Shown here: piece after piece, positions 1 to 10,551 of the stretch | How the letters are laid out: every line of letters begins with the position of its first letter | How positions within the stretch are numbered: the first letter of the stretch is position 1 | IMG/VR virus record: IMGVR_UViG_2529292736_000008 | DNA: 10,551 nucleotides | Direction: 5' to 3' (one strand) | From: a virus | Taxonomy: Duplodnaviria > Heunggongvirae > Uroviricota > Caudoviricetes | Notes under the pieces: model-generated | What the model saw: the letters and a program-made list of their open reading frames with translations, nothing else | What the model was told of the DNA's origin: nothing | The model's database searches: none | Position numbers and translations under genes: made by a program

Positions 1-636
1 TGACTGGCGGTATAACGGCAGATGGTCTGCATATTTTCCGGTGACAACATGGGCCAGAAGCCCCGCTCCGGCATAACTGCGTGCAATGGGTTTTGAAGGT
101 ACTGGTGCCTGCACGATATGGTCGCACCGGCAACAGGCCAGTTTCGGACGTTGTGTTTCGATAACCTTAAAGGCGCTGCTGATAAGCTCCAGTTGCTCTG
201 ACACATCACATCCCAGAGAACTGAGTTCACCACCACAGGCAGGACAGCATTCCTCTTCCGGCAGGATAACCCGGGTTTCACGGGGAAGTGAGGCCGGTAA
301 CGGTTTACGGGCTGAAGACTGGCGCAGGGCGGATGGCAGTACCGGGTCATATTGCTCACCCAGCGTTTCCGCCATTTCTTCCTGAAGTGCGCTGATTCGC
401 TCCTGTGCTTCCTGTATCTGCCGTTCGGTTTTTGCACGAAGTTTTTCTGAGCTTTTACCGAACTGCATACGTTGCAGTTTCGCAACCAGCGCCTTCAGCC
501 GGTTGATTTCGGAAGCATAAGCCGCCACCCGCTGTGAGAGCAGGCGGTTGTATTCAGCCATCTGGCGTATGGTGTCCTGTTGCGTCTGCAACAGTGCCCG
601 CAGGCGGGCGTTCTCATGAGCAAGTGAGGTGTCCAT
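1..636 (-). CDS. tnpC: IS66-family transposase TnpC, N-terminal 212 codons (continues beyond window start)
   Basis: Minus-strand ATG at 636..634; translation MDTSLAHENARLRALLQTQQ... with leucine-zipper-like region and CxxC...CxxC zinc-finger motif (PACGGEL...CCRCDH), typical of IS66 TnpC; frame open to position 1. Not in the ORF track because it has no stop within the window. Confidence 0.85.
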   Translation of the reverse strand, partial: MDTSLAHENARLRALLQTQQDTIRQMAEYNRLLSQRVAAYASEINRLKALVAKLQRMQFGKSSEKLRAKTERQIQEAQERISALQEEMAETLGEQYDPVLPSALRQSSARKPLPASLPRETRVILPEEECCPACGGELSSLGCDVSEQLELISSAFKVIETQRPKLACCRCDHIVQAPVPSKPIARSYAGAGLLAHVVTGKYADHLPLYRQS

Positions 637-655
637 ATCCTCACTTTACAACGGG

Positions 656-1003
656 TTATATGCGGATTCCAGCGCGTTCCGTTCGTTTCGGGTGCTTCCA
701 GTTGATACCTTCAAGAAGCATGGATAACTGAGCCGGAGTAAGGTGCACCTTGCCGTCACGGGTGACTGGCCAGACGAAGCGGCCCCGCTCCAGGCGTTTG
801 GTGAAGAGGCACAGTCCGTCACTGTCAGCCCACAACACTTTTATCTGGTCACCCCGGCGTCCGCGGAAGATGAACAGGTGTCCGGAGAACGGGTCATCCT
901 TCAGGACGTTCTGAACTTTTGATGCCAGGCCGTTAAAGCCATTTCGCATATCGGTGATACCTGCAACCAGCCAGATACGCGAACCTGCAGGGAGAGATAT
1001 CAT
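656..1003 (-). CDS. tnpB: IS66-family accessory protein TnpB (115 aa)
   Basis: 115-aa ORF of characteristic IS66 Orf2 size and sequence (WLVAGITDMRNGFNGLA...), start overlapping the tnpA stop. Confidence 0.9.
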   Translation of the reverse strand: MISLPAGSRIWLVAGITDMRNGFNGLASKVQNVLKDDPFSGHLFIFRGRRGDQIKVLWADSDGLCLFTKRLERGRFVWPVTRDGKVHLTPAQLSMLLEGINWKHPKRTERAGIRI

Positions 1004-1680
1004 CAGTGGCTGCTCCCTTTTATTTCGCGGATAAGTGTCTGTAATAACGCCGGCGTCAGTTTACCTTTAAGCCTGAGAGTTCCGGCCGGCAGAACCAGCT
1101 CACAACACAGACTGTCGGACGGTGTATTTATCTGCTCTGGTTCCTGTGCGGGGGCCGGGATTTTATTATCCGGCTCCGGCGTTAACGTCACGGGAAGCAG
1201 TGCCGGCATATTTTTTCCGGAAGGCAGCAGGCCACCTTTCCGGTATTGATGGCGCCAGTTGAAGAGCTGGTTATCGTTGATTCCGTTTTCCCGGGCGATC
1301 TGCGCCACACAGGCTCCGGGCTGCAGTGACTGCTCCACTAAGGCGATTTTAAACTCATAAGGGAAGTTGGGCCGCCGGGGACGTTTTTTTACCACGGGGG
1401 CTTCGGATATAACGGTGCTTTCAGGACGTACGACTGGTACCGTGGAAAATTGTCCGTAAAGGCAGGCATCAAGTTCCTGCTCCGACATGCCTGCGGGCAA
1501 AGGCCACGAAAGGCCAGCTCTCCGAAAGCGCACGAACATACTACAAACTGTTGATTTTGGTACACCCAGGCGACGCCCGGCCACAACCCGGGGTAAATGT
1601 TCTTCAAAGTGAAGACGTAAAGCTTCAGTGATCCAGGTCCGGTGTTTCATACGATAGTGTCCATTAAAAATGATGGACAT
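1003..1680 (-). CDS. tnpA: IS66-family TnpA (Orf1), 225-aa ORF; true start may be an internal Met (e.g. 1488)
   Basis: C-terminal half carries the IS66 Orf1 HTH-like motif ([52 protein letters not shown]). N-terminal ~64 aa is an extra HTH-like extension ([19 protein letters not shown]). Confidence 0.75.
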
Positions 1681-1710
1681 TATTTTTGTAGAGCCGGAGG
1701 AAACAGACCA

Positions 1711-2505
1711 GACGGTTTAAATGAGCCGGTTACTGCCGGTATTGAGAACACCCCTGACGGCATGCAGAGTCAGGTGCTGCTGGCGGCGGACAGGATTGCG
1801 ATGGTTAATCCTGCGAATGGCAACACAAAACCGATGTTTGTTGGTCAGGGCGATCAGATATTCATGAACGACGTGTTCCTGAAACGCCTGACGGCCCCCA
1901 CCATTACCAGCGGTGGAAATCCACCGGCATTTTCCCTGACTCCGGACGGAAAGCTGACCGCTAAAAATGCGGATATCAGTGGCAGTGTGAATGCGAACGC
2001 CGGGACGCTCAACAATGTCACGGTAAATGAAAACTGTACGATTAAGGGCATGCTGGAGGCGACTCAGGTCAGAGGTGACTTCGTTAAAGCTGTATCCAAA
2101 TCATTCCCGAAACAGGCTGGTACGTGGGGTAACACGGAAACACCAAACGGGACGGTTACAGTCACCATAAGCGATGATCATAACTTTGACCGTCAAATCA
2201 TTATTCCGCCCATTATCTTTAACGGAATAGCGTATAGCGATCCGGGAAGTGGTAATAACCCGGGAGGTACAAGATACACGGGTTATGGTTTTGAAGTTCG
2301 CAAAAACGGTGTATTAATCGCATCCAGAGAAACTAAAGGGGCTATTCCCGGTAGCTACAGTGCGGTTATTGATATGCCGAGTGGCAGGGGAAGCGTCACT
2401 CTGGAGTTTAAGGTTTTCCATAAAGGCAATCAGTGGGCAGGTAATATCACCGACTGTACGGTGATTGTGACCAAAAAAGCCGCTTCCGGCATCAGTATTC
2501 GTTGA
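1711..2505 (+). pseudogene. J: Tail tip host-specificity protein J, C-terminal fragment (5' part removed by IS66-family insertion)
   Basis: Translation ...[81 protein letters not shown]... matches the recalled C-terminus of lambda gpJ. No J-like N-terminus; in-frame stop at 1618..1620 and IS sequence upstream. Start coordinate approximate. Confidence 0.8.
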
Positions 2506-2574: not shown

Positions 2575-3175
2575 ATGCGTAAACTTTATGCCGCCATTTT
2601 GTCCGCAGCCATTTGTCTGGCCGTATCCGGTGCGCCTGCATGGGCATCTGAACATCAGTCCACGCTGAGCGCGGGGTATCTTCATGCCTTGACGAACGTT
2701 CCCGGCAGCGATGATCTTAACGGGATTAACGTGAAATACCGTTATGAGTTTACGGACACACTGGGGCTGGTGACGTCATTCAGCTATGCAGGAGACAAGA
2801 ATCGCCAGCTTACCCGTTACAGCGATACCCGCTGGCATGAAGATTCAGTGCGTAACCGCTGGTTCAGCGTGATGGCGGGGCCGTCTGTGCGCGTGAATGA
2901 ATGGTTCAGCGCGTATGCGATGGCGGGTATGGCTTACAGCCGTGTTTCGACTTTCTCCGGGGATTATCTCCGCGTAACTGACAACAAGGGGAAAACGCAC
3001 GACGTGCTGACCGGAAGTGATGACGGTCGCCACAGCAACACGTCTCTGGCGTGGGGGGGCTGGCGTGCAGTTTAACCCGACCGAATCCGTGGCCATTGAT
3101 ATTGCTTATGAAGGCTCCGGCAGTGGTGACTGGCGCACTGACGGTTTCATCGTGGGTGTCGGTTATAAATTCTGA
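2575..3175 (+). CDS. lom: Lom outer-membrane protein (Ail/Lom family); reading frame broken by a +1 frameshift in a G7 run (3053..3059). As written the ORF stops at 3075 (166 aa); the remaining 38 codons continue in the next frame to TGA at 3173..3175.
   Basis: N-terminal 160 aa match recalled lambda Lom ([37 protein letters not shown]...). After the G-run the +1 frame reads [38 protein letters not shown], the Lom C-terminus. RBS GAGAGG 5 nt upstream of ATG. Confidence 0.85.
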
Positions 3176-3200
3176 TTAGCCAGGTAACACAGTGTTATGA

Positions 3201-3238: not shown

Positions 3239-6200
3239 ATGGCAGTAAAGATTTCAGGTGTACTGAAAGACGGCACAGGAAAACCGGTACAGAACTGCAC
3301 AATCCAGCTGAAAGCAAAACGTAACAGCACCACGGTGGTGGTGAACACGCTGGCCTCAGAAAATCCGGATGAAGCCGGGCGTTACAGCATGGACGTTGAG
3401 TACGGTCAGTACAGCGTTATTCTGTTGGTGGAAGGCTTCCCGCCGTCACATGCCGGGACCATCACCGTGTATGAAGATTCCCGACCCGGTACGCTGAATG
3501 ATTTTCTCGGTGCCATGACGGAGGATGATGCCCGTCCGGAGGCACTGCGCCGTTTTGAACTGATGGTGGAAGAGGTGGCGCGTAACGCGTCCGCAGTGGC
3601 ACAGAACACGGCAGCCGCGAAGAAGTCAGCCAGTGATGCCAGCACATCTGCCCGTGAGGCGGCAACCCATGCAACCGATGCTGCAGGCTCAGCACGTGCC
3701 GCCAGCACGTCAGCCGGACAGGCTGCATCATCTGCTCAGTCAGCATCTTCCAGCGCAGGAACGGCATCAACAAAGGCCAGTGAAGCATCGAAAAGTGCTG
3801 CTGCTGCAGAGTCCTCAAAAAGCGCGGCAGCTACCAGTGCCAGTGCCGCGAAAACGTCAGAAACGAATGCGGCAGCGTCACAAAAATCTGCAGCCACTTC
3901 TGCATCCGCCGCGACCACGAAGGCGTCAGAAGCTGCCACCTCAGCCCGGGATGCGGCGGCCTCAAAAGAGGCAGCGAAATCATCAGAAACGAACGCATCA
4001 TCAAGCGCCAGTAGTGCAGCTTCCTCGGCAACGGCGGCAGGAAATTCCGCGAAGGCGGCAAAGACGTCTGAGACAAACGCTAAGTCTTCTGAGACGGCAG
4101 CGGAACAGAGTGCCTCCGCAGCAGCAGACTCAAAAACAGCGGCTGCATCATCTGCCAGCGCCGCGTCAACAAGTGCCGGGCAGGCCTCAGCCAGTGCCAC
4201 CGCCGCCGGAAAGTCGGCAGAAAGTGCCGCATCGTCTGCTTCAACAGCCACAACGAAGGCTGGCGAAGCCACTGAACAGGCCAGCGCAGCAGCGAGTTCT
4301 GCTTCCGCAGCGAAGACATCCGAAACGAACGCGAAAGCGTCGGAAACCCGTGCAGAATCCTCAAAAACGGCTGCCGCATCGTCAGCCAGTTCGGCGGCGT
4401 CATCGGCATCATCTGCGTCTGCTTCAAAAGATGAGGCGACCAGACAAGCGTCAGCAGCGAAGAGCAGCGCCACGACGGCATCCACGAAGGCGACAGAGGC
4501 AGCTGGCAGTGCGACGGCGGCAGCACAGAGCAAAAGTACGGCGGAATCCGCGGCAACGCGCGCCGAGACAGCGGCAAAACGGGCAGAGGATATTGCATCC
4601 GCCGTGGCGCTTGAGGATGCGAGCACGACGAAAAAGGGGGTAGTACAGCTCAGCAGTGCGACCAACAGTACGTCTGAAACGCTGGCGGCAACGCCAAAGG
4701 CAGTAAAATCAGCCTATGACAATGCAGAGAAACGTCTGCAGAAAGACCAGAACGGCGCTGATATACCCGATAAGGGACACTTCCTGAACAACATTAACGC
4801 GGTCAGTAAAACAGACTTTGCTGATAAGCGCGGTATGCGTTATGTGCGGGTTAATGCTCCTGCAGGTGCAACATCTGGAAAATATTACCCTGTTGTTGTT
4901 ATGCGTTCTGCTGGCTCAGTAAGCGAACTGGCATCAAGGGTCATTATCACCACGGCAACGCGAACCGCAGGCGATCCGATGAATAACTGCGAGTTTAACG
5001 GATTTGTTATGCCTGGTGGCTGGACTGACAGGGGGCGTTATGCTTATGGCATGTTCTGGCAATATCAAAACAATGAACGAGCCATCCACTCAATAATGAT
5101 GAGTAATAAGGGCGATGATTTGCGCTCTGTGTTCTATGTTGATGGCGCTGCTTTCCCTGTTTTTGCGTTTATCGAAGATGGCCTGTCAATATCCGCACCT
5201 GGTGCTGATCTCGTTGTTAATGATACGACCTATAAGTTTGGGGCAACAAATCCGGCGACTGAATGTATCGCGGCGGACGTTGTCCTTGATTTTAAGAGTG
5301 GGCGTGGTTTTTATGAGTCTCATTCGTTAATCGTTAACGATAACTTGTCGTGCAAAAAACTTTTTGCCACAGACGAAATTGTAGCGCGTGGTGGTAATCA
5401 GATTCGAATGATAGGTGGGGAGTATGGTGCATTATGGCGTAATGATGGCGCTAAAACTTACCTGCTGCTTACCAATCAAGGTGATGTTTATGGTGGCTGG
5501 AATACATTAAGACCGTTTGCTATTGATAACGCAACCGGCGAACTGATTATTGGAACCAAACTGTCCGCAAGTCTGAACGGTAATGCATTAACAGCAACAA
5601 AGCTGCAAACGCCAAGACTGGTTTCTGGTGTTGAGTTTGATGGTTCCAAAGATATTACTTTAACCGCTGCGCATGTGGCTGCTTTTGCCAGAAGGGCAAC
5701 TGATACATATGCCGATGCGGATGGTGGCGTTCCCTGGAATGCCGAATCAGGCGCTTACAATGTCACCCGCTCTGGCGACAGCTATATTCTGGTTAACTTC
5801 TATACCGGAGTCGGAAGTTGCCGGACCCTGCAGATGAAGGCGCATTACAGAAATGGAGGTCTGTTCTACCGTTCCTCAAGAGATGGCTATGGTTTTGAGG
5901 AAGACTGGGCAGAAGTTTATACCTCGAAAAATCTTCCACCAGAAAGCTACCCAGTCGGCGCACCAATCCCGTGGCCATCAGATACCGTTCCGTCTGGCTA
6001 TGCCCTGATGCAGGGGCAGACTTTTGACAAATCTGCATACCCGAAACTTGCAGTGGCTTATCCGTCAGGCGTTATTCCTGATATGCGTGGCTGGACGATT
6101 AAGGGCAAACCTGCCAGTGGTCGTGCCGTATTGTCTCAGGAACAGGACGGCATTAAATCGCACACCCACAGCGCCAGCGCATCCAGTACGGATTTGGGTA

Positions 6201-6505
6201 CGAAAACCACATCGTCGTTTGATTACGGCACTAAATCCACGAATAACACCGGGGCTCATACGCATAGTCTGAGCGGCTCTACAAGCTCGGCTGGAGCACA
6301 CTCGCACGTTGATGGGCGCAGGTTTAATACAAGCACTTTTAAAGACACCTATCAGTATGGTTCTACAGCTGTCGGAAGTAACTCATACCAGGTACAAGGG
6401 GCGGTTGGTCTGGGCGTTGGTACGATGGCGAATACGAACTCTGCTGGCGCGCACACCCACTCACTGTCCGGCACTGCTGCAAGCGCAGGCGCACACGCAC
6501 ATTGA
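3239..6505 (+). CDS. stf: Side tail fibre protein Stf, 5' portion (1088 codons), truncated by IS629; stop codon TGA (6503..6505) is supplied by the IS629 terminus
   Basis: Starts [26 protein letters not shown]..., the conserved lambda Stf N-terminus (recalled). Long Ala/Ser/Thr-rich shaft, a central lower-GC module, then lambda-like C-terminal region GAPIPWPSD...GAHTHSLSG...AGAHAH. Confidence 0.85.
3590..4640 (+). repeat. Degenerate in-frame coding repeats (Ala/Ser/Thr-rich fibre shaft) inside stf
   Basis: Recurring units such as AAKTSETNA(K/A)...SAA(A/T)SAS at DNA ~3841, ~4050 and ~4310; GC-rich GCN/TCN codon runs. This composition explains the long spurious ORFs on other frames and strands. 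Confidence 0.5.
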
Positions 6506-6527
6506 ACCGCCCCGGGTTTCCTGGAGA
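6503..6527. repeat. IS629 terminal inverted repeat (stf-proximal end)
   Basis: TGAACCGCCCCGGGTTTCCTGGAGA; reverse complement of 7787..7811 is TGAACCGCCCCGGGAATCCTGGAGA. Confidence 0.85.
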
Positions 6528-6544
6528 GTGTTTTATCTGTGAAC

Positions 6545-7431
6545 TCAGGCTGCCAGATCATCGTTTCCGATGGAAGCATAATAAGCTTTTTCTGCTTCTG
6601 CCGGTGGGATATGGCCCAGCCTTTCCAGCAATCGTCGATTGTTATACCAGTCCACCCACGTGAGTGTGGCCAGCTCCACTTCTGTCCGGTTTTTCCAGCT
6701 CTTACGGTGTATTACCTCCGCTTTGTAAAGGCCATTGATGCTCTCCGCCATCGCGTTGTCATACGAGTCACCAGTACTTCCTGTTGATGCCAGTAATCCG
6801 GCTTCCTTAAGCCGCTGTGTGTAGGCCAGCGATACATACTGAGAACCTTTATCACTGTGATGGACTGTGCCGGACGGTCGACGGGCCCATAACGCCTGCT
6901 CCAGAGCATCCAGCACGAATGTCGTTTCCATAGACGATGAGACCCGCCACCCCACGATGTATCCGGCAAACACATCAATGATGAACGCCACATAGACGAC
7001 CCCCTGCCATGTGCTGACGTAAGTAAAATCAGCCACCCACAACTGGTCAGGACGTTCTGCCACAAACTGACGGTTTACGCGGTCGCCTGCGGCAACGGCT
7101 TTCCGGCTGACGGTAGTGCGGACCTTTTTACCCCGGAGAACACCGGCAAGTCCCATAACCGCCATGAGGCGCGCCACTGTACATCTGGCTACCCTGATTC
7201 CTTCCCGTAACAACTGACGCCAGACTTTACGCACACCGTATACCTGATGATTCCCATCGTATACGCGCAGTATCTCTTTCTTCAGCCAGTCATCGCGCTG
7301 CGCACGGGCACTGCGTTTATCAGGATGATGTCGCTGTTGCTGACAGTGTAATACGTTGACGGGGCAATATGTAGTTCACTGCATACCGGTCCGACCCCGT
7401 ACAGCTTACGCAGCTTATCCAGCAGTGGCAT
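6545..7431 (-). pseudogene. IS629 transposase OrfB (DDE integrase domain), frameshifted near 7345..7352; longest intact ORF is 6545..7234 (229 aa from GTG)
   Basis: ATG at 7431..7429 opens [28 protein letters not shown], which then runs into a stop. The following frame continues HCQQQRHHPDKRSARAQRDDWLKKEILRVYDGNHQVYGV-RKVWRQLL... through the DDE catalytic region (LWVADFTYV...HHSDKGSQY...YDNAMAES). The two halves are in different frames. Confidence 0.8.
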
Positions 7432-7757
7432 CACTTTTTCCAGAGGCGGTCGAACTCCGCCTTCGCAAAATAAGCGGAAGCCTGGCGAAGGATATCGTTA
7501 CTGCGGCGCAGTTCACGATTTTCACGTTCCAGCTCTTTCAGACGCTGACGTTCAGCGGTGGTGAGCCCGCCATCACCGCCTCCGGTATCCCGCTCATGCT
7601 GGCGTACCCAGACACGCAGAGTCTCCGGTGTACAGTCAATCTTTGGGGCAATGGAACAAATTGCCGCCCACTGTGAGTCATATTCGCCCTGACTTTCCAG
7701 AACCATACGAATCGCCCTCTGACGGACTTCGGGGGAAAAACGAGTATTTTTAGTCAT
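7431..7757 (-). CDS. IS629 transposase OrfA (108 aa, HTH)
   Basis: [30 protein letters not shown]..., IS3-family OrfA with C-terminal leucine-zipper-like region; stop TGA overlaps the orfB ATG (TGATG). Confidence 0.9.
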
Positions 7758-7786
7758 CCTGTTTACCTCTTTCTCAGGGAGTTTAG

Positions 7787-7811
7787 TCTCCAGGATTCCC
7801 GGGGCGGTTCA
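7787..7811. repeat. IS629 terminal inverted repeat (tfa-proximal end)
   Basis: See 6503..6527; 23/25 identity in inverted orientation. Confidence 0.85.
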
Positions 7812-7949
7812 CATACTGTCGGTATTGGTGCACACACGCACTCCGTTGCGATTGGTTCACATGGACACACCATCACCGTTAACGCTGCTGGTAACGCGGA
7901 AAACACCGTCAAAAACATTGCATTTAACTATATTGTGAGGCTTGCATAA
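7812..7949 (+). pseudogene. stf: stf 3' remnant (last 45 codons of side tail fibre gene, separated from the body by IS629)
   Basis: Reads (H)[44 protein letters not shown], matching the recalled lambda Stf C-terminus; stop TAA overlaps the tfa ATG (TAATG). Confidence 0.85.
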
Positions 7950-8533
7950 TGGCATTCAGAATGAGTGAACAAGCACGGACCATAAAAATTTATAATCTGC
8001 TGGCCGGAACTAATGAATTTATTGGTGAAGGTGACGCATATATTCCGCCTCATACAGGTCTGCCAGCAAACAGTACCGATATTGCACCACCAGATATTCC
8101 TGCTGGCTTTGTGGCTGTTTTCAACAGTGATGAGGCATCGTGGCATCTCGTTGAAGACCATCGGGGAAAAACGGTTTATGACGTAGCGTCAGGGGACGAG
8201 TTATTTATTTCTGAACTCGGTCCGTTACCGGAAAATGTTACCTGGTTATCGCCGGAAGGGGAGTTTCAGAAGTGGAACGGCACAGCCTGGGTGAAGGATA
8301 CGGAAGCAGAAAAAATGTTCCGGATCCGGGAGGCGGAAGAAACAAAAAACAACCTGATGCAGGTAGCCAGTGAGCATATTGCGCCGCTTCAGGATGCTGC
8401 AGATCTGGAAATTGCAACGGAGGAAGAAACCTCATTGCTGGAAGCCTGGAAAAAGTATCGGGTGTTGCTGAACCGTGTTGATACATCAACTGCACCTGAT
8501 ATTGAGTGGCCTACGAACCCTGTCAGGGAGTAA
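7949..8533 (+). CDS. tfa: Tail fibre assembly protein Tfa (194 aa), intact
   Basis: [54 protein letters not shown]...[13 protein letters not shown]; near-identical in length and sequence to recalled lambda Tfa; coupled to the stf stop. Confidence 0.9.
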
Positions 8534-8587: not shown

Positions 8588-9256
8588 CTATTTTTTCCCT
8601 GAAGCGGAAAACATTACTACAGTACCTTGAACCTTGGTTTTAACATTCTCGAAATGCTCTGAGAGTATATGTGTTAAGCCTTCTTCGGAATCTTTTGTGT
8701 TTGAAAAGATGCCTTTCTGATTGTAAATGCGCATCAGTTTTTGACCGAAGCTATTGTGCACAACTCCATCGCCAAGAATTGTGGCTCCGTATAGAGTTCC
8801 ATCGTCAGTTAAGGCCTGCGCCGCATTGCGTATTACACAGCTTTTTGTAGATATATTTCCAGGCAGGCAGTGAAGAAGGTAAAACATGGAAATGGAATCA
8901 AATTGACCATGTAACGCCGCGGGATAAGGTTCAAAAACATCATGGCTAATTTTATGTTTAATTTTTGATTCCCCAGCCCTTGTAGATGCCGCGTTCAGGC
9001 TAGCTTCGTTCAAATCCATTAAAGATATCAGACTACTCTCAGGTACGTGAGTAAGGTAAAACCCAGTTCCAACACCAATATCCAGATGGTTGTTACCTAC
9101 ATGTTCCAGAAAGTGTGGAAGAAGGTGTTCCTTTGTAGGACATCCCCATGCAAGCCGATTTGATACTCCCAAAACCCACCAGTCATAAAGCTTTAGGGTA
9201 AGTGGTGTGTAAATTTTAGCCCCATCATCTGTGTTTTTTTTCATTGATTTCACCAT
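8588..9256 (-). CDS. Putative class I (Rossmann-fold) SAM-dependent methyltransferase, 222 aa; AT-rich cargo gene
   Basis: Motif I LDIGVGTGFY (hh[DE]hGxGxG), acidic end of beta-2 (ISLMDLN), motif II/III-like FDSISMFYLLHCLP and LTDDGTLYGATIL. No DPPY/NPPY or PC-Q DNA-methyltransferase motifs, so the substrate is unclear. GC content visibly lower than the flanking phage genes. Confidence 0.7.
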   Translation of the reverse strand: MVKSMKKNTDDGAKIYTPLTLKLYDWWVLGVSNRLAWGCPTKEHLLPHFLEHVGNNHLDIGVGTGFYLTHVPESSLISLMDLNEASLNAASTRAGESKIKHKISHDVFEPYPAALHGQFDSISMFYLLHCLPGNISTKSCVIRNAAQALTDDGTLYGATILGDGVVHNSFGQKLMRIYNQKGIFSNTKDSEEGLTHILSEHFENVKTKVQGTVVMFSASGKK

Positions 9257-9312: not shown

Positions 9313-9582
9313 ATGCTGCCGCAGCATAGCGATATTGAAATAGCCTGGTATGCTTCGATACAGCAGGAGCCGAATGGCTGGAAGACCGTCACCACACAGT
9401 TCTACATCCAGGAATTCAGTGAGTATATTGCGCCACTGCAGGATGCTGTAGATCTGGAAATCGCAACGGAGGAAGAAAGATCGTTGCTGGAGGCATGGAA
9501 TAAATATCGGGTATTGTTGAATCGTGTTGATACATCAACTGCACCTGATATTGAGTGGCCTGCAAATCCTGTCAGGGAGTAA
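9313..9582 (+). CDS. tfa' - chimeric small ORF (89 aa): unrelated 35-aa N-terminus fused to a duplicated Tfa C-terminal domain
   Basis: C-terminal 54 aa ([53 protein letters not shown]) parallel the Tfa C-terminus at 8372..8533. ATG preceded by AAGGGG 4 nt upstream. May be a remnant or an expressed mini-Tfa. Confidence 0.5.
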
Positions 9583-9632
9583 TCATTGGGATTATGCCGC
9601 AGACACGTCGTATGCAGGAACGTGCTGCGGTT
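9415..9632 (+). repeat. Direct repeat copy 2 (~218 bp) of tfa 3' end plus hairpin
   Basis: See 8366..8582. Confidence 0.8.
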
Positions 9633-9696
9633 AGTTTGTGAGCTTTCGATAGTGGTTGTTATTTTTGCCCTTATTTGTTCCGGAGGCCATGGTTCA

Positions 9697-9867
9697 ATGG
9701 TCCGTCTGCCCCCTGTGGTGATGTCAGCAAAATCAGCCACTGCGCGAACCACAATAGCCCGGGAAGATGCTGAAGATCACCAGGTAAAGCTGTCAGCGCA
9801 GAAACTGGAAGAACTGCTCGCATCAATGGTTAAGGATGAGGTTGATCGCAATGATGGGATTTATTGA
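9697..9867 (+). CDS. Hypothetical small protein (56 aa)
   Basis: ATG at 9697 with GGAGG (9682..9686) 10 nt upstream; ORF ends 95 nt before a strong terminator hairpin. The track's 93-aa version starts at a TTG inside the repeat hairpin and is less plausible. No recognisable domain. Confidence 0.35.
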   Translation: MVRLPPVVMSAKSATARTTIAREDAEDHQVKLSAQKLEELLASMVKDEVDRNDGIY

Positions 9868-9961
9868 CGTCAGCGAGAGCAGAAGGAAGAACTGAATAAC
9901 CTGAATGATTTACGCTCAATCAGAGCGATGGCGATTAGCGGCAATCACGCTCGATAAAATT

Positions 9962-9987
9962 AACCCCGGTGATCATCCGGGGTTTTG
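9962..9987. terminator. Bidirectional rho-independent terminator between convergent genes
   Basis: AACCCCGG (9962..9969) - TGATCAT - CCGGGGTT (9977..9984), with TTTT after it on the plus strand and A-run before it (U-run on the minus strand). Confidence 0.6.
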
Positions 9988-9993
9988 CATTCA

Positions 9994-10551
9994 TTAAAAC
10001 CGCATCAACCTTTCCACCAATTGTTCTTTACGGGCAACGATCCACCCATGTTGCTCCAGATAAAATTTAAACCGTTCCAGCGTGCATACCATCGCATCGG
10101 CGGGGACTTTTTCTGTGAACTCGACCTGACCGTGTTTATCGAAGTGGATCAGTAATGCGCATCCATTATTTGGGGCGGGGGAGTTTTGTGCTGCAGGAGG
10201 ACGTTTGTGGAGTTCTTCTTCCATTGCGTTAAATTTTTCAATGTAAGCTTCTTTTAGTCTGGCTGCTTTTTTGCCAGTAAATCCCATTACGAGGAACATG
10301 AAGCCGTCTTTTGTGATCAGGTAGCATCGTGATTCACGTTCTGCGCCGTTGCCAATTTCGACAGTCTGAACATCGGCCGAAAAGTTGGCTGATGTAAATT
10401 CGGGAGAGCAGTCGAGTGTGTCAATCTTAGCTAAAACGTGTTTATGTTGTTTATCGAAGTAGTCGGCAACAGCTTGAGAGGTGGTAACCAGGCGACCATC
10501 TTTGAAAAAGACTTTTGGTGACTCGTTAGAAAAAGTTATAGCTGTATTCAT
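9994..10551 (-). CDS. Rha-family phage regulatory protein (185 aa as read; start codon coincides with the window edge, so the N-terminus may be incomplete)
   Basis: N-terminal region ...GRLVTTSQAVADYFDKQHKHVLAKIDTL...YLITKDGFMFLVMGFTGKKAARLKEAYIEKFNAMEEEL resembles the Rha (pRha) regulatory domain (recalled). C-terminal ~70 aa of unknown function. Confidence 0.7.
   Translation of the reverse strand: MNTAITFSNESPKVFFKDGRLVTTSQAVADYFDKQHKHVLAKIDTLDCSPEFTSANFSADVQTVEIGNGAERESRCYLITKDGFMFLVMGFTGKKAARLKEAYIEKFNAMEEELHKRPPAAQNSPAPNNGCALLIHFDKHGQVEFTEKVPADAMVCTLERFKFYLEQHGWIVARKEQLVERLMRF

Follow-up and report, generated by a model that had tools for sequence, protein, structure and literature searches.

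What has become of the side tail fibre gene (stf) in a lambdoid prophage whose last stf codons are separated from the body of the gene by a mobile element, and what does the interruption leave standing of the fibre, of the element and of the prophage? The locus lies in the window, a 10,551-nucleotide stretch of viral DNA (IMG/VR record IMGVR_UViG_2529292736_000008) numbered here from its first letter. Taking all lines of evidence jointly, we consider it very probable that one IS629-group element inserted into the stf of a lambdoid prophage, and that this was a young event in the decay of the prophage, with a non-functional fibre as its consequence and a copy of the element that is probably itself non-autonomous.

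A simple insertion into stf

The element spans positions 6503..7811, with exact boundaries at both ends and a length of 1309 bp, and its transposase genes lie on the minus strand, antisense to stf. A repeat finder and the sequence itself place the orfB-end terminal inverted repeat (IRR) at 6503..6527 and the orfA-end repeat (IRL) at 7787..7811. The two 25-nt arms, TGAACCGCCCCGGG...CCCGGGGCGGTTCA, are complementary at 23 of 25 positions (92%, repeat finder), and the element ends are of the 5'-TG...CA-3' type. At the left junction (6500-6527), the host gene reads ...GCA CAC GCA CAT before the element start TGAACCGCCCCGGGTTTCCTGGAGA; at the right junction (7787-7820), the element end ...TCTCCAGGATTCCCGGGGCGGTTCA is followed by CAT ACT GTC.... 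The trinucleotide CAT therefore directly flanks the element on each side, its left copy (6500..6502) being the codon of His1088 and its right copy lying at 7812..7814, and the empty site of Escherichia coli TUM13867 holds a single CAT. The original prediction, which placed the element at 6503-7811 with inverted repeats and a CAT target duplication, was exact to the base.

Upstream of the element, the truncated gene (stf', 3239..6505, plus strand) comprises 1088 codons ending in ...AGAHAH, followed by TGA. The start used here is the one annotated in TUM13867: the mechanical list of open reading frames begins the gene 14 codons earlier, at 3197, and the TUM13867 orthologue is annotated from the equivalent of 3239. 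The TGA (6503-6505) consists of the first three bases of the element, which, as had been proposed, supplies the stop codon of the truncated fibre; the product is 1088 residues long and carries no foreign residues at its tail. Downstream of the element, the 3' end of stf (7815..7949, plus strand) encodes 44 sense codons and TAA, which agrees with the predicted distance of 45 codons between the insertion and the end of the gene. Within this piece, a GTG located five codons ahead of the stop is the only in-frame start-type codon, and the last 44 codons of stf are thus orphaned without a usable start.

In-silico excision of 6503..7814, that is, of the element and one CAT, restores a single open frame of 3399 nt that begins with the ATG at 3239. 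The expectation that ...AGAHAH would be rejoined in frame was borne out; the restored protein has 1132 residues, and the 1133 given before counts the stop codon. The flanks form a continuous stf frame that matches uninterrupted genes in related genomes. In E. coli TUM13867, stfR is uninterrupted and likewise exactly 3399 nt long, lies in a J-lom-stf-tfa-methyltransferase module and is identical to the restored junction at 63 of 63 nt; its protein differs from the restored Stf by 20 amino acid substitutions, all before residue 764. A 240-nt sequence across the restored junction matches genes annotated as stfR or phage tail protein at 240/240 positions in many complete E. coli genomes, and at least 80% of it is covered in 958 of the complete E. 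coli genomes. At the N-terminus of the protein, the prophage tail fibre domain PF08400 (N-terminal tail fibre) covers residues 1-134 with an E-value of 1.5e-71; the other Pfam domains found in stf' are Gp34_trimer, Collar and Phage_fiber. The gene order J - lom - stf - tfa is recovered by Pfam and is annotated in the same way in TUM13867 and in E. coli PKF4.

Because the boundaries are precise, the CAT is duplicated and the empty site is perfect, the element entered by simple insertion, which duplicated 3 bp of the target and rearranged nothing else. A deletion or rearrangement linked to the IS was considered and ruled out, as the flanks rejoin perfectly to the empty-site sequence. Any three bases match by chance in 1 of 64 cases, but chance is not the cause of the CAT/CAT pair, since the restored junction is identical in uninterrupted genes. 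The possibility that the junctions between the element and stf are an assembly artefact, in which a multi-copy IS caused a repeat-induced misjoin, has some general appeal: multi-copy repeats are a classic cause of misassembly, and IS629-type elements occupy a median of 4 places per genome and up to 53. Such a misjoin would yield no perfect 3-bp target duplication, nor would the flanks, once rejoined, agree with intact genes at 240/240 positions, and we regard its probability as practically negligible. The insertion itself, which no observation contradicts, is best explained by a single, ordinary transposition of an IS629/IS1203/IS3411-group element into stf at codon 1088/1089, with a 3-bp staggered cut. 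Transposition in the IS3 family proceeds by a copy-out-paste-in route via a circular intermediate.

Identity and coding capacity of the element

Judged by sequence identity, the element belongs to the IS629/IS1203/IS3411 isoform group of the IS3 family. Its closest relatives are 1310-bp copies on chromosomes and plasmids of enterotoxigenic E. coli (ETEC; H10407, TW11681 and others), to which it is 99.9% identical with one gap as the only difference, and which RefSeq labels 'IS3 family transposase, programmed frameshift' with an 'AL1L pseudoknot'. Identity is 96.0% to the copy annotated IS629 in BP-4795, 95.6% to Stx-phage copies annotated 'IS3 family IS629', 95.2% and 94.8% to the 'IS629 ORF1/ORF2' copies of Shigella flexneri pCP301, the Shigella reference used for the IS629 comparison, and 94.8-95.0% to copies that PGAP names 'IS1203 family'. 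An identical OrfA is on record either as 'IS3 family IS1203 transposase ORF A' (one submitter) or as plain 'transposase'. By the ISfinder convention, isoforms share at least about 95% nucleotide identity with a reference. The values of 94.8-96.0% obtained against IS629 copies straddle ~95%, and they refer to depositor-annotated copies. The name IS629 given by the original prediction is right at the level of the isoform group, and these identities do not fix a finer isoform name. According to Rump et al., the subtypes of IS629 diverge by 4-5%, and IS1203 and IS3411 count among its isoforms (PMC3271280).

The remaining features are those of the group. The length is close to ~1310 bp, a single deletion accounting for the missing base; the terminal repeats are imperfect and end in 5'-TG...CA-3'; the target duplication of 3 bp, present as CAT/CAT here and as one CAT in the empty site, falls within the 3-4 bp known for IS629 (PMC3271280). 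Pfam and Rfam recover orfA and orfB in frames 0 and -1 together with the stimulatory RNA structure. OrfA (7431..7757, minus strand; open reading frame list, translation and Pfam) is intact, with 108 residues and an HTH_Tnp_1 domain. The ALIL pseudoknot that stimulates the programmed -1 frameshift (7360..7476, minus strand) is likewise intact, matching Rfam RF01497 over model positions 1-117 of 117 with 116.2 bits, where the gathering score is 50.

OrfB, which encodes the DDE (rve) domain (6545..7431, minus strand), is broken by a 1-nt deletion. Three-frame translation against a reference copy gives 887 nt in the window and 888 nt in intact copies, and global alignment with a 1310-bp copy reveals a sole difference, one missing G at 7347 (site 7346..7347), where intact copies read CAGTGGTAATAC and the window reads CAGTGTAATAC. 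On the coding strand, the missing base is located 13 nt 3' of the pseudoknot and some 28 codons past the start of orfB. Beyond ...APSTYY, the window's -1 frame runs through 21 nonsense codons to a stop (APSTYYTVSNSDIILINAVPVRSAMTG*); in intact copies the same frame stays open through to the DDE domain. The rve domain falls in the downstream piece of orfB (Pfam), and three-frame translation puts this remainder in the third frame, behind a stop. The deletion at 7347 thus places the DDE domain out of reach from orfA. After the programmed -1 frameshift, translation of OrfAB would continue beyond the deletion for 21 nonsense codons and then stop short of the DDE domain, which would make the copy non-autonomous. 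If the deletion is no sequencing error, the copy has no intact OrfAB frame, its family membership being unaffected. The copy is thus unlikely to make its own transposase, with the reservation that a deletion in a GG pair could be a sequencing error. Its ends being intact, it might still transpose or be excised, but only if another copy provided the transposase. The original prediction had the structure of the element right; its implicit picture needs the correction that the element has 1309 bp instead of the canonical 1310 bp, and the orfB frameshift had been overlooked.

The reservation deserves to be weighed. On an alternative reading, the element is really an intact, autonomous one of 1310 bp, and both the G missing at 7347 and an extra G in lom (described below) are sequencing or assembly errors. 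Both indels do fall in G runs (GG to G and G6 to G7), and a third indel between the window and TUM13867 lies beside a T run, after lom. The missing G is also the only difference from the ETEC copies, and no copy in an E. coli genome or plasmid matches the 1309-bp element exactly, the best reaching 99.9%. Two other copies of 1309 bp, on IncK2/Z plasmids, carry a different deletion, of an A at the equivalent of window position 7510. Against a sequencing error, a run of two bases is a weak context for homopolymer errors; the IncK2/Z plasmids (A at ~7510) indicate that disabling 1-nt deletions arise independently in this lineage; and the surrounding prophage is visibly decaying, with an IS66-type cut in J. 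We consider an intact element possible but unlikely, and a genuine deletion the better reading. The missing G was also considered as the mark of a propagating non-autonomous subfamily, and this was rejected, as the other 1309-bp copies have a different deletion and no exact match exists. For the same reasons, the deletion at 7347 appears private to the window copy.

Consequences for the fibre, tfa and the prophage

In the restored Stf, the C-terminal 231 residues match the receptor-binding tip of T4 gp37 (PDB 2XGF) with an E-value of 4.6e-88, in an alignment that extends to the final residue. By this alignment, the 44 residues lost through the insertion correspond to gp37 983-1026. The restored Stf contains seven HxH motifs, at residues 975, 1007, 1021, 1072, 1086, 1095 and 1104, in agreement with the needle of gp37 and its seven iron sites. 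The insertion after His1088 falls directly past the fifth motif and removes the sixth and seventh; a gp37-type collar and HxH needle is therefore present in the restored reading frame only, the tip in the window being split after the fifth motif. In gp37, the collar domain D10 is built of residues 811-881 and 1010-1026 (Islam et al., PMC6957217), and the needle is lined by seven coordinated irons, whose binding histidines are essential for function (PMC6957217). Through the loss of the segment equivalent to gp37 983-1026, the truncated Stf would be deprived of two iron sites, of the collar-closing segment and of a portion of the needle strand on its way back, and it could not assemble a tip with the collar and the iron-stapled, trimeric needle. 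On the strength of this homology, the truncated Stf is strongly expected to misfold, so that no functional side tail fibre would be made. The earlier view of the side fibre as almost certainly non-functional is thereby supported as a strong inference from gp37.

Might the 1088-residue Stf still work, or work with altered specificity, so that the insertion was tolerated or even selected? The truncation is clean and adds no foreign residues, five of the seven HxH motifs and the region aligned with the gp37 head are kept, tfa is intact, and an independent insertion in E. coli PKF4 indicates that hits in stf recur. The structural comparison speaks against a working fibre: in gp37, the chain runs up the needle and back, and its C-terminal segment is an integral needle strand that closes the collar (1010-1026), quite apart from the essential role of the iron-binding histidines (PMC6957217). 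The PKF4 insertion, about 1 kb upstream, removes the whole tip and fits neutral decay better than a selected truncation; and with J cut, there would be no particle to display the fibre unless it were used in trans. A functional truncated fibre is, in our estimate, highly improbable, and we retain the loss of function as the preferred reading.

Downstream of the orphaned piece, tfa, which encodes the tail fibre assembly chaperone (7949..8533, plus strand; Pfam PF02413), is intact, and the exact Tfa protein is widespread. Its ATG overlaps the TAA of stf (TAATG), and a GAGG lies 8-11 nt upstream of the ATG. Following the insertion, tfa would lose translational coupling to stf but would keep its own Shine-Dalgarno sequence. 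Lambda-type late transcription is antiterminated. With both features in place, synthesis of Tfa may continue, provided that the late transcript extends through. A consensus scan for promoters and terminators between 6300 and 8100 returned no more sites than shuffled sequence and none pointing towards tfa.

The insertion in stf is one of several lesions. An ISCro1-like element of the IS66 family (99.6% identical) occupies 1..1734, its transposase gene running off the start of the window, with the IS66-type genes tnpB (656..1003) and tnpA (1003..1680) identified by Pfam on the minus strand. J, the essential tail-tip gene, is cut: its last 772 nt alone are present, abutting the IS66-type element at 1734 and encoding Phage_Tail_Tip and Ig_GpJ_C domains (Pfam). 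The pattern of the IS66/J junction was absent from species-representative genomes. In lom, a run of seven G at 3047-3053 replaces the six G of intact alleles and yields a product of 166 residues instead of 199; a further indel relative to TUM13867 is intergenic, after lom and beside a T run. As one of several lesions in a prophage whose J is cut, the stf insertion cannot be what blocks phage production; it would represent a single stage in the degradation of a prophage that was defective beforehand or became so concurrently. The original account of the lesions holds for stf, and it had overlooked both the cut in J and the lom frameshift. Two side observations concern J. The window begins inside the IS66-type element, and the rest of the gene could lie beyond it; in other strains, IS1203 cuts J of the same prophage module.

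Age, significance and related systems

The filled site was sought widely. With a 300-nt probe of the left junction, no genome among 5,426 complete E. coli genomes was covered over more than 60%, the covered portion being the IS part alone, and the filled junction was accordingly found in 0 of 5,426. The pattern of the left junction was also absent from 185,579 species-representative genomes and, separately, from metagenome contigs, the truncated Stf had no exact protein match with either start, and coverage of the window by any one complete E. coli genome reaches 69% at most. At the same time, the element shows zero substitutions in 1309 bp relative to circulating ETEC copies, and the stf flanks, including the orphan bases 7815-7934, are 100% identical to intact alleles. 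The absence of the filled site, the lack of substitutions and the identity of the flanks are all consistent with recency, and the insertion is probably evolutionarily young and specific to a strain or lineage. The original prediction also suggested a relatively recent event, a view with which these three observations agree, but it cited the intact duplication as evidence, which is weak: three bases rarely mutate, and an intact 3-bp duplication therefore says little about age.

The locus is a case of routine prophage decay through a textbook insertion of the IS629 type, and nothing in it departs from known biology. Its importance beyond annotation is small. For annotation, the two stf pieces (3239..6505 and 7815..7949) belong together as a single pseudogene with a mobile element inside it, and the frameshifted transposase gene of the IS should likewise be labelled a pseudogene. 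A strain or lineage could be recognised by the junctions, the filled site being absent from the 5,426 genomes and the empty site common; typing by IS629 insertion sites is already in use for O157:H7 (PMC3271280). The locus also illustrates how a prophage decays by several IS hits, including the decay of an IS itself. Two departures from this plain history can be entertained together: either the element was already transposase-dead when it entered stf, as a non-autonomous derivative of the IS629 type mobilised in trans by intact copies, or the recurrent hits in stf, here and in PKF4, stem not from neutral decay but from selection against expression of a gp37-like fibre tip by a resident prophage. 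That one or the other is correct seems to us improbable, and an ordinary insertion in a decaying prophage remains the reading that we adopt.

Known IS629/IS1203/IS3411 insertions in prophages of O157:H7, other Shiga toxin-producing E. coli, ETEC and Shigella share with the window element a length of ~1310 bp, 25-nt imperfect repeats and a 3-bp duplication, as well as orfA and orfB joined by a -1 frameshift with an ALIL pseudoknot. Prophages or prophage-like elements hold 62% of the IS629 copies in O157:H7 (PMC3271280). The window copy differs from these known insertions in three respects: it belongs to the subtype common in ETEC (99.9%), about 4-5% from annotated IS629 and IS1203; it bears a private orfB frameshift; and none of the 5,426 complete E. 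coli genomes has an insertion at its site.

The nearest parallel is E. coli PKF4 (NZ_CP156662.1), in which an IS629-type element has inserted independently into the same stf allele, within a module that likewise holds J, lom, stf, tfa and a methyltransferase gene, and in which the annotation shows stf as a pseudogene in two parts that flank an IS3-family element. The PKF4 site corresponds to about window position 5510, roughly 1 kb upstream of the insertion described here; the element lies in the opposite orientation, belongs to a subtype 95.5% identical to the window element and, unlike it, has an intact transposase.

The T4 gp37 tip (PDB 2XGF) has in common with Stf the aligned C-terminal end (811-1026), seven HxH motifs, the collar domain and the C-terminal 13 residues. 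Stf differs from gp37 in being a side fibre of the lambdoid type, with PF08400 at the N-terminus, in being helped by Tfa (PF02413) where gp37 is helped by gp38 and gp57A, and in having a diverged central head segment, visible as gaps in the alignment.

Among lambdoid phages, Stf is an accessory fibre, whereas gpJ is the essential adsorption protein. In lambda PaPa, a 1-bp deletion that splits stf into two open reading frames was reportedly described by Hendrix and Duda in 1992, the phage remaining viable. Lambda PaPa and the window share a lambdoid stf inactivated by a small lesion, which deprives the phage of side tail fibres, with tfa remaining downstream. They differ in the nature of that lesion, a 1-bp deletion in lambda PaPa as against a 1.3-kb IS near the 3' end of stf in the window, where J is also disrupted.

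Left flank: a cut J gene and a frameshifted lom

The first 1734 nucleotides of the window (1..1734) are occupied by a partial ISCro1-like element of the IS66 family, which shares 99.6% identity with a copy from E. coli O39:NM F8704-2. Its tnpB (656..1003) and tnpA (1003..1680) both lie on the minus strand, and its transposase gene extends past the window start. At position 1734 the element adjoins J, the tail-tip gene, whose final 772 nt follow; J is thus truncated or interrupted at this point.

Downstream of J, lom (2575..3174) carries a run of seven G (3047..3053) as opposed to six in intact alleles, and the seventh G causes a frameshift that leaves a product of 166 aa versus 199 aa. This lom may truly be a pseudogene, or the extra base may be a sequencing error in the homopolymer. 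Comparison with the uninterrupted E. coli TUM13867 locus shows another indel at ~3221, in a hairpin and T-run between lom and stf.

Region downstream of tfa

A class I SAM-dependent methyltransferase is encoded directly past tfa on the opposite, minus strand (8588..9256), followed on the plus strand by an 89-aa piece of a second tfa (9313..9582; PF02413). Many prophages of E. coli share this arrangement, which looks like what is left of an earlier fibre-tip module of the alternative or invertible kind.

The terminal stretch (9400..10551) comprises tfa-fragment sequence, a region that carries DUF4376 and ash family annotations in other sequences, and a Rha-family regulator (9994..10551, minus strand) that runs off the end of the window. 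Several complete E. coli genomes match this terminal stretch at 100% identity; none of the complete genomes joins it to the remaining window, the best single place covering 69%.

Related insertions in the same prophage module

In E. coli PKF4 (NZ_CP156662.1), the same stf allele is interrupted by an IS629-type element (5184..6493 of the extracted locus) at about the equivalent of window position 5510. This copy, inserted in the opposite orientation, shares 95.5% identity with the element of the window and has an intact transposase; it is an independent event, and stf has been hit more than once. In two other E. coli strains with the same J-lom-stf-tfa module, elements annotated by PGAP as 'IS1203 family' truncate J (542..1755 in locus L015; 543..1756 in L016), at cut points different from that of the IS66-type element in the window.

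Disabled and probably degenerate copies of the element on plasmids

Two IncK2/Z plasmids, pLH50-c-A and pCh101, each carry a 1309-bp copy of the window element's subtype (201..1509 in both loci), and in both of them orfA is missing one A, at the counterpart of window position 7510. This single-base deletion is different from that of the window's element and likewise disables the copy. On the S. flexneri plasmid pCP301, two copies annotated 'IS629' (32042..33347 and 42886..44191) measure ~1306 bp and align to the window's element with four gap openings; their 'ORF2' is annotated at just 222 aa, which suggests that these Shigella copies are also degenerate.
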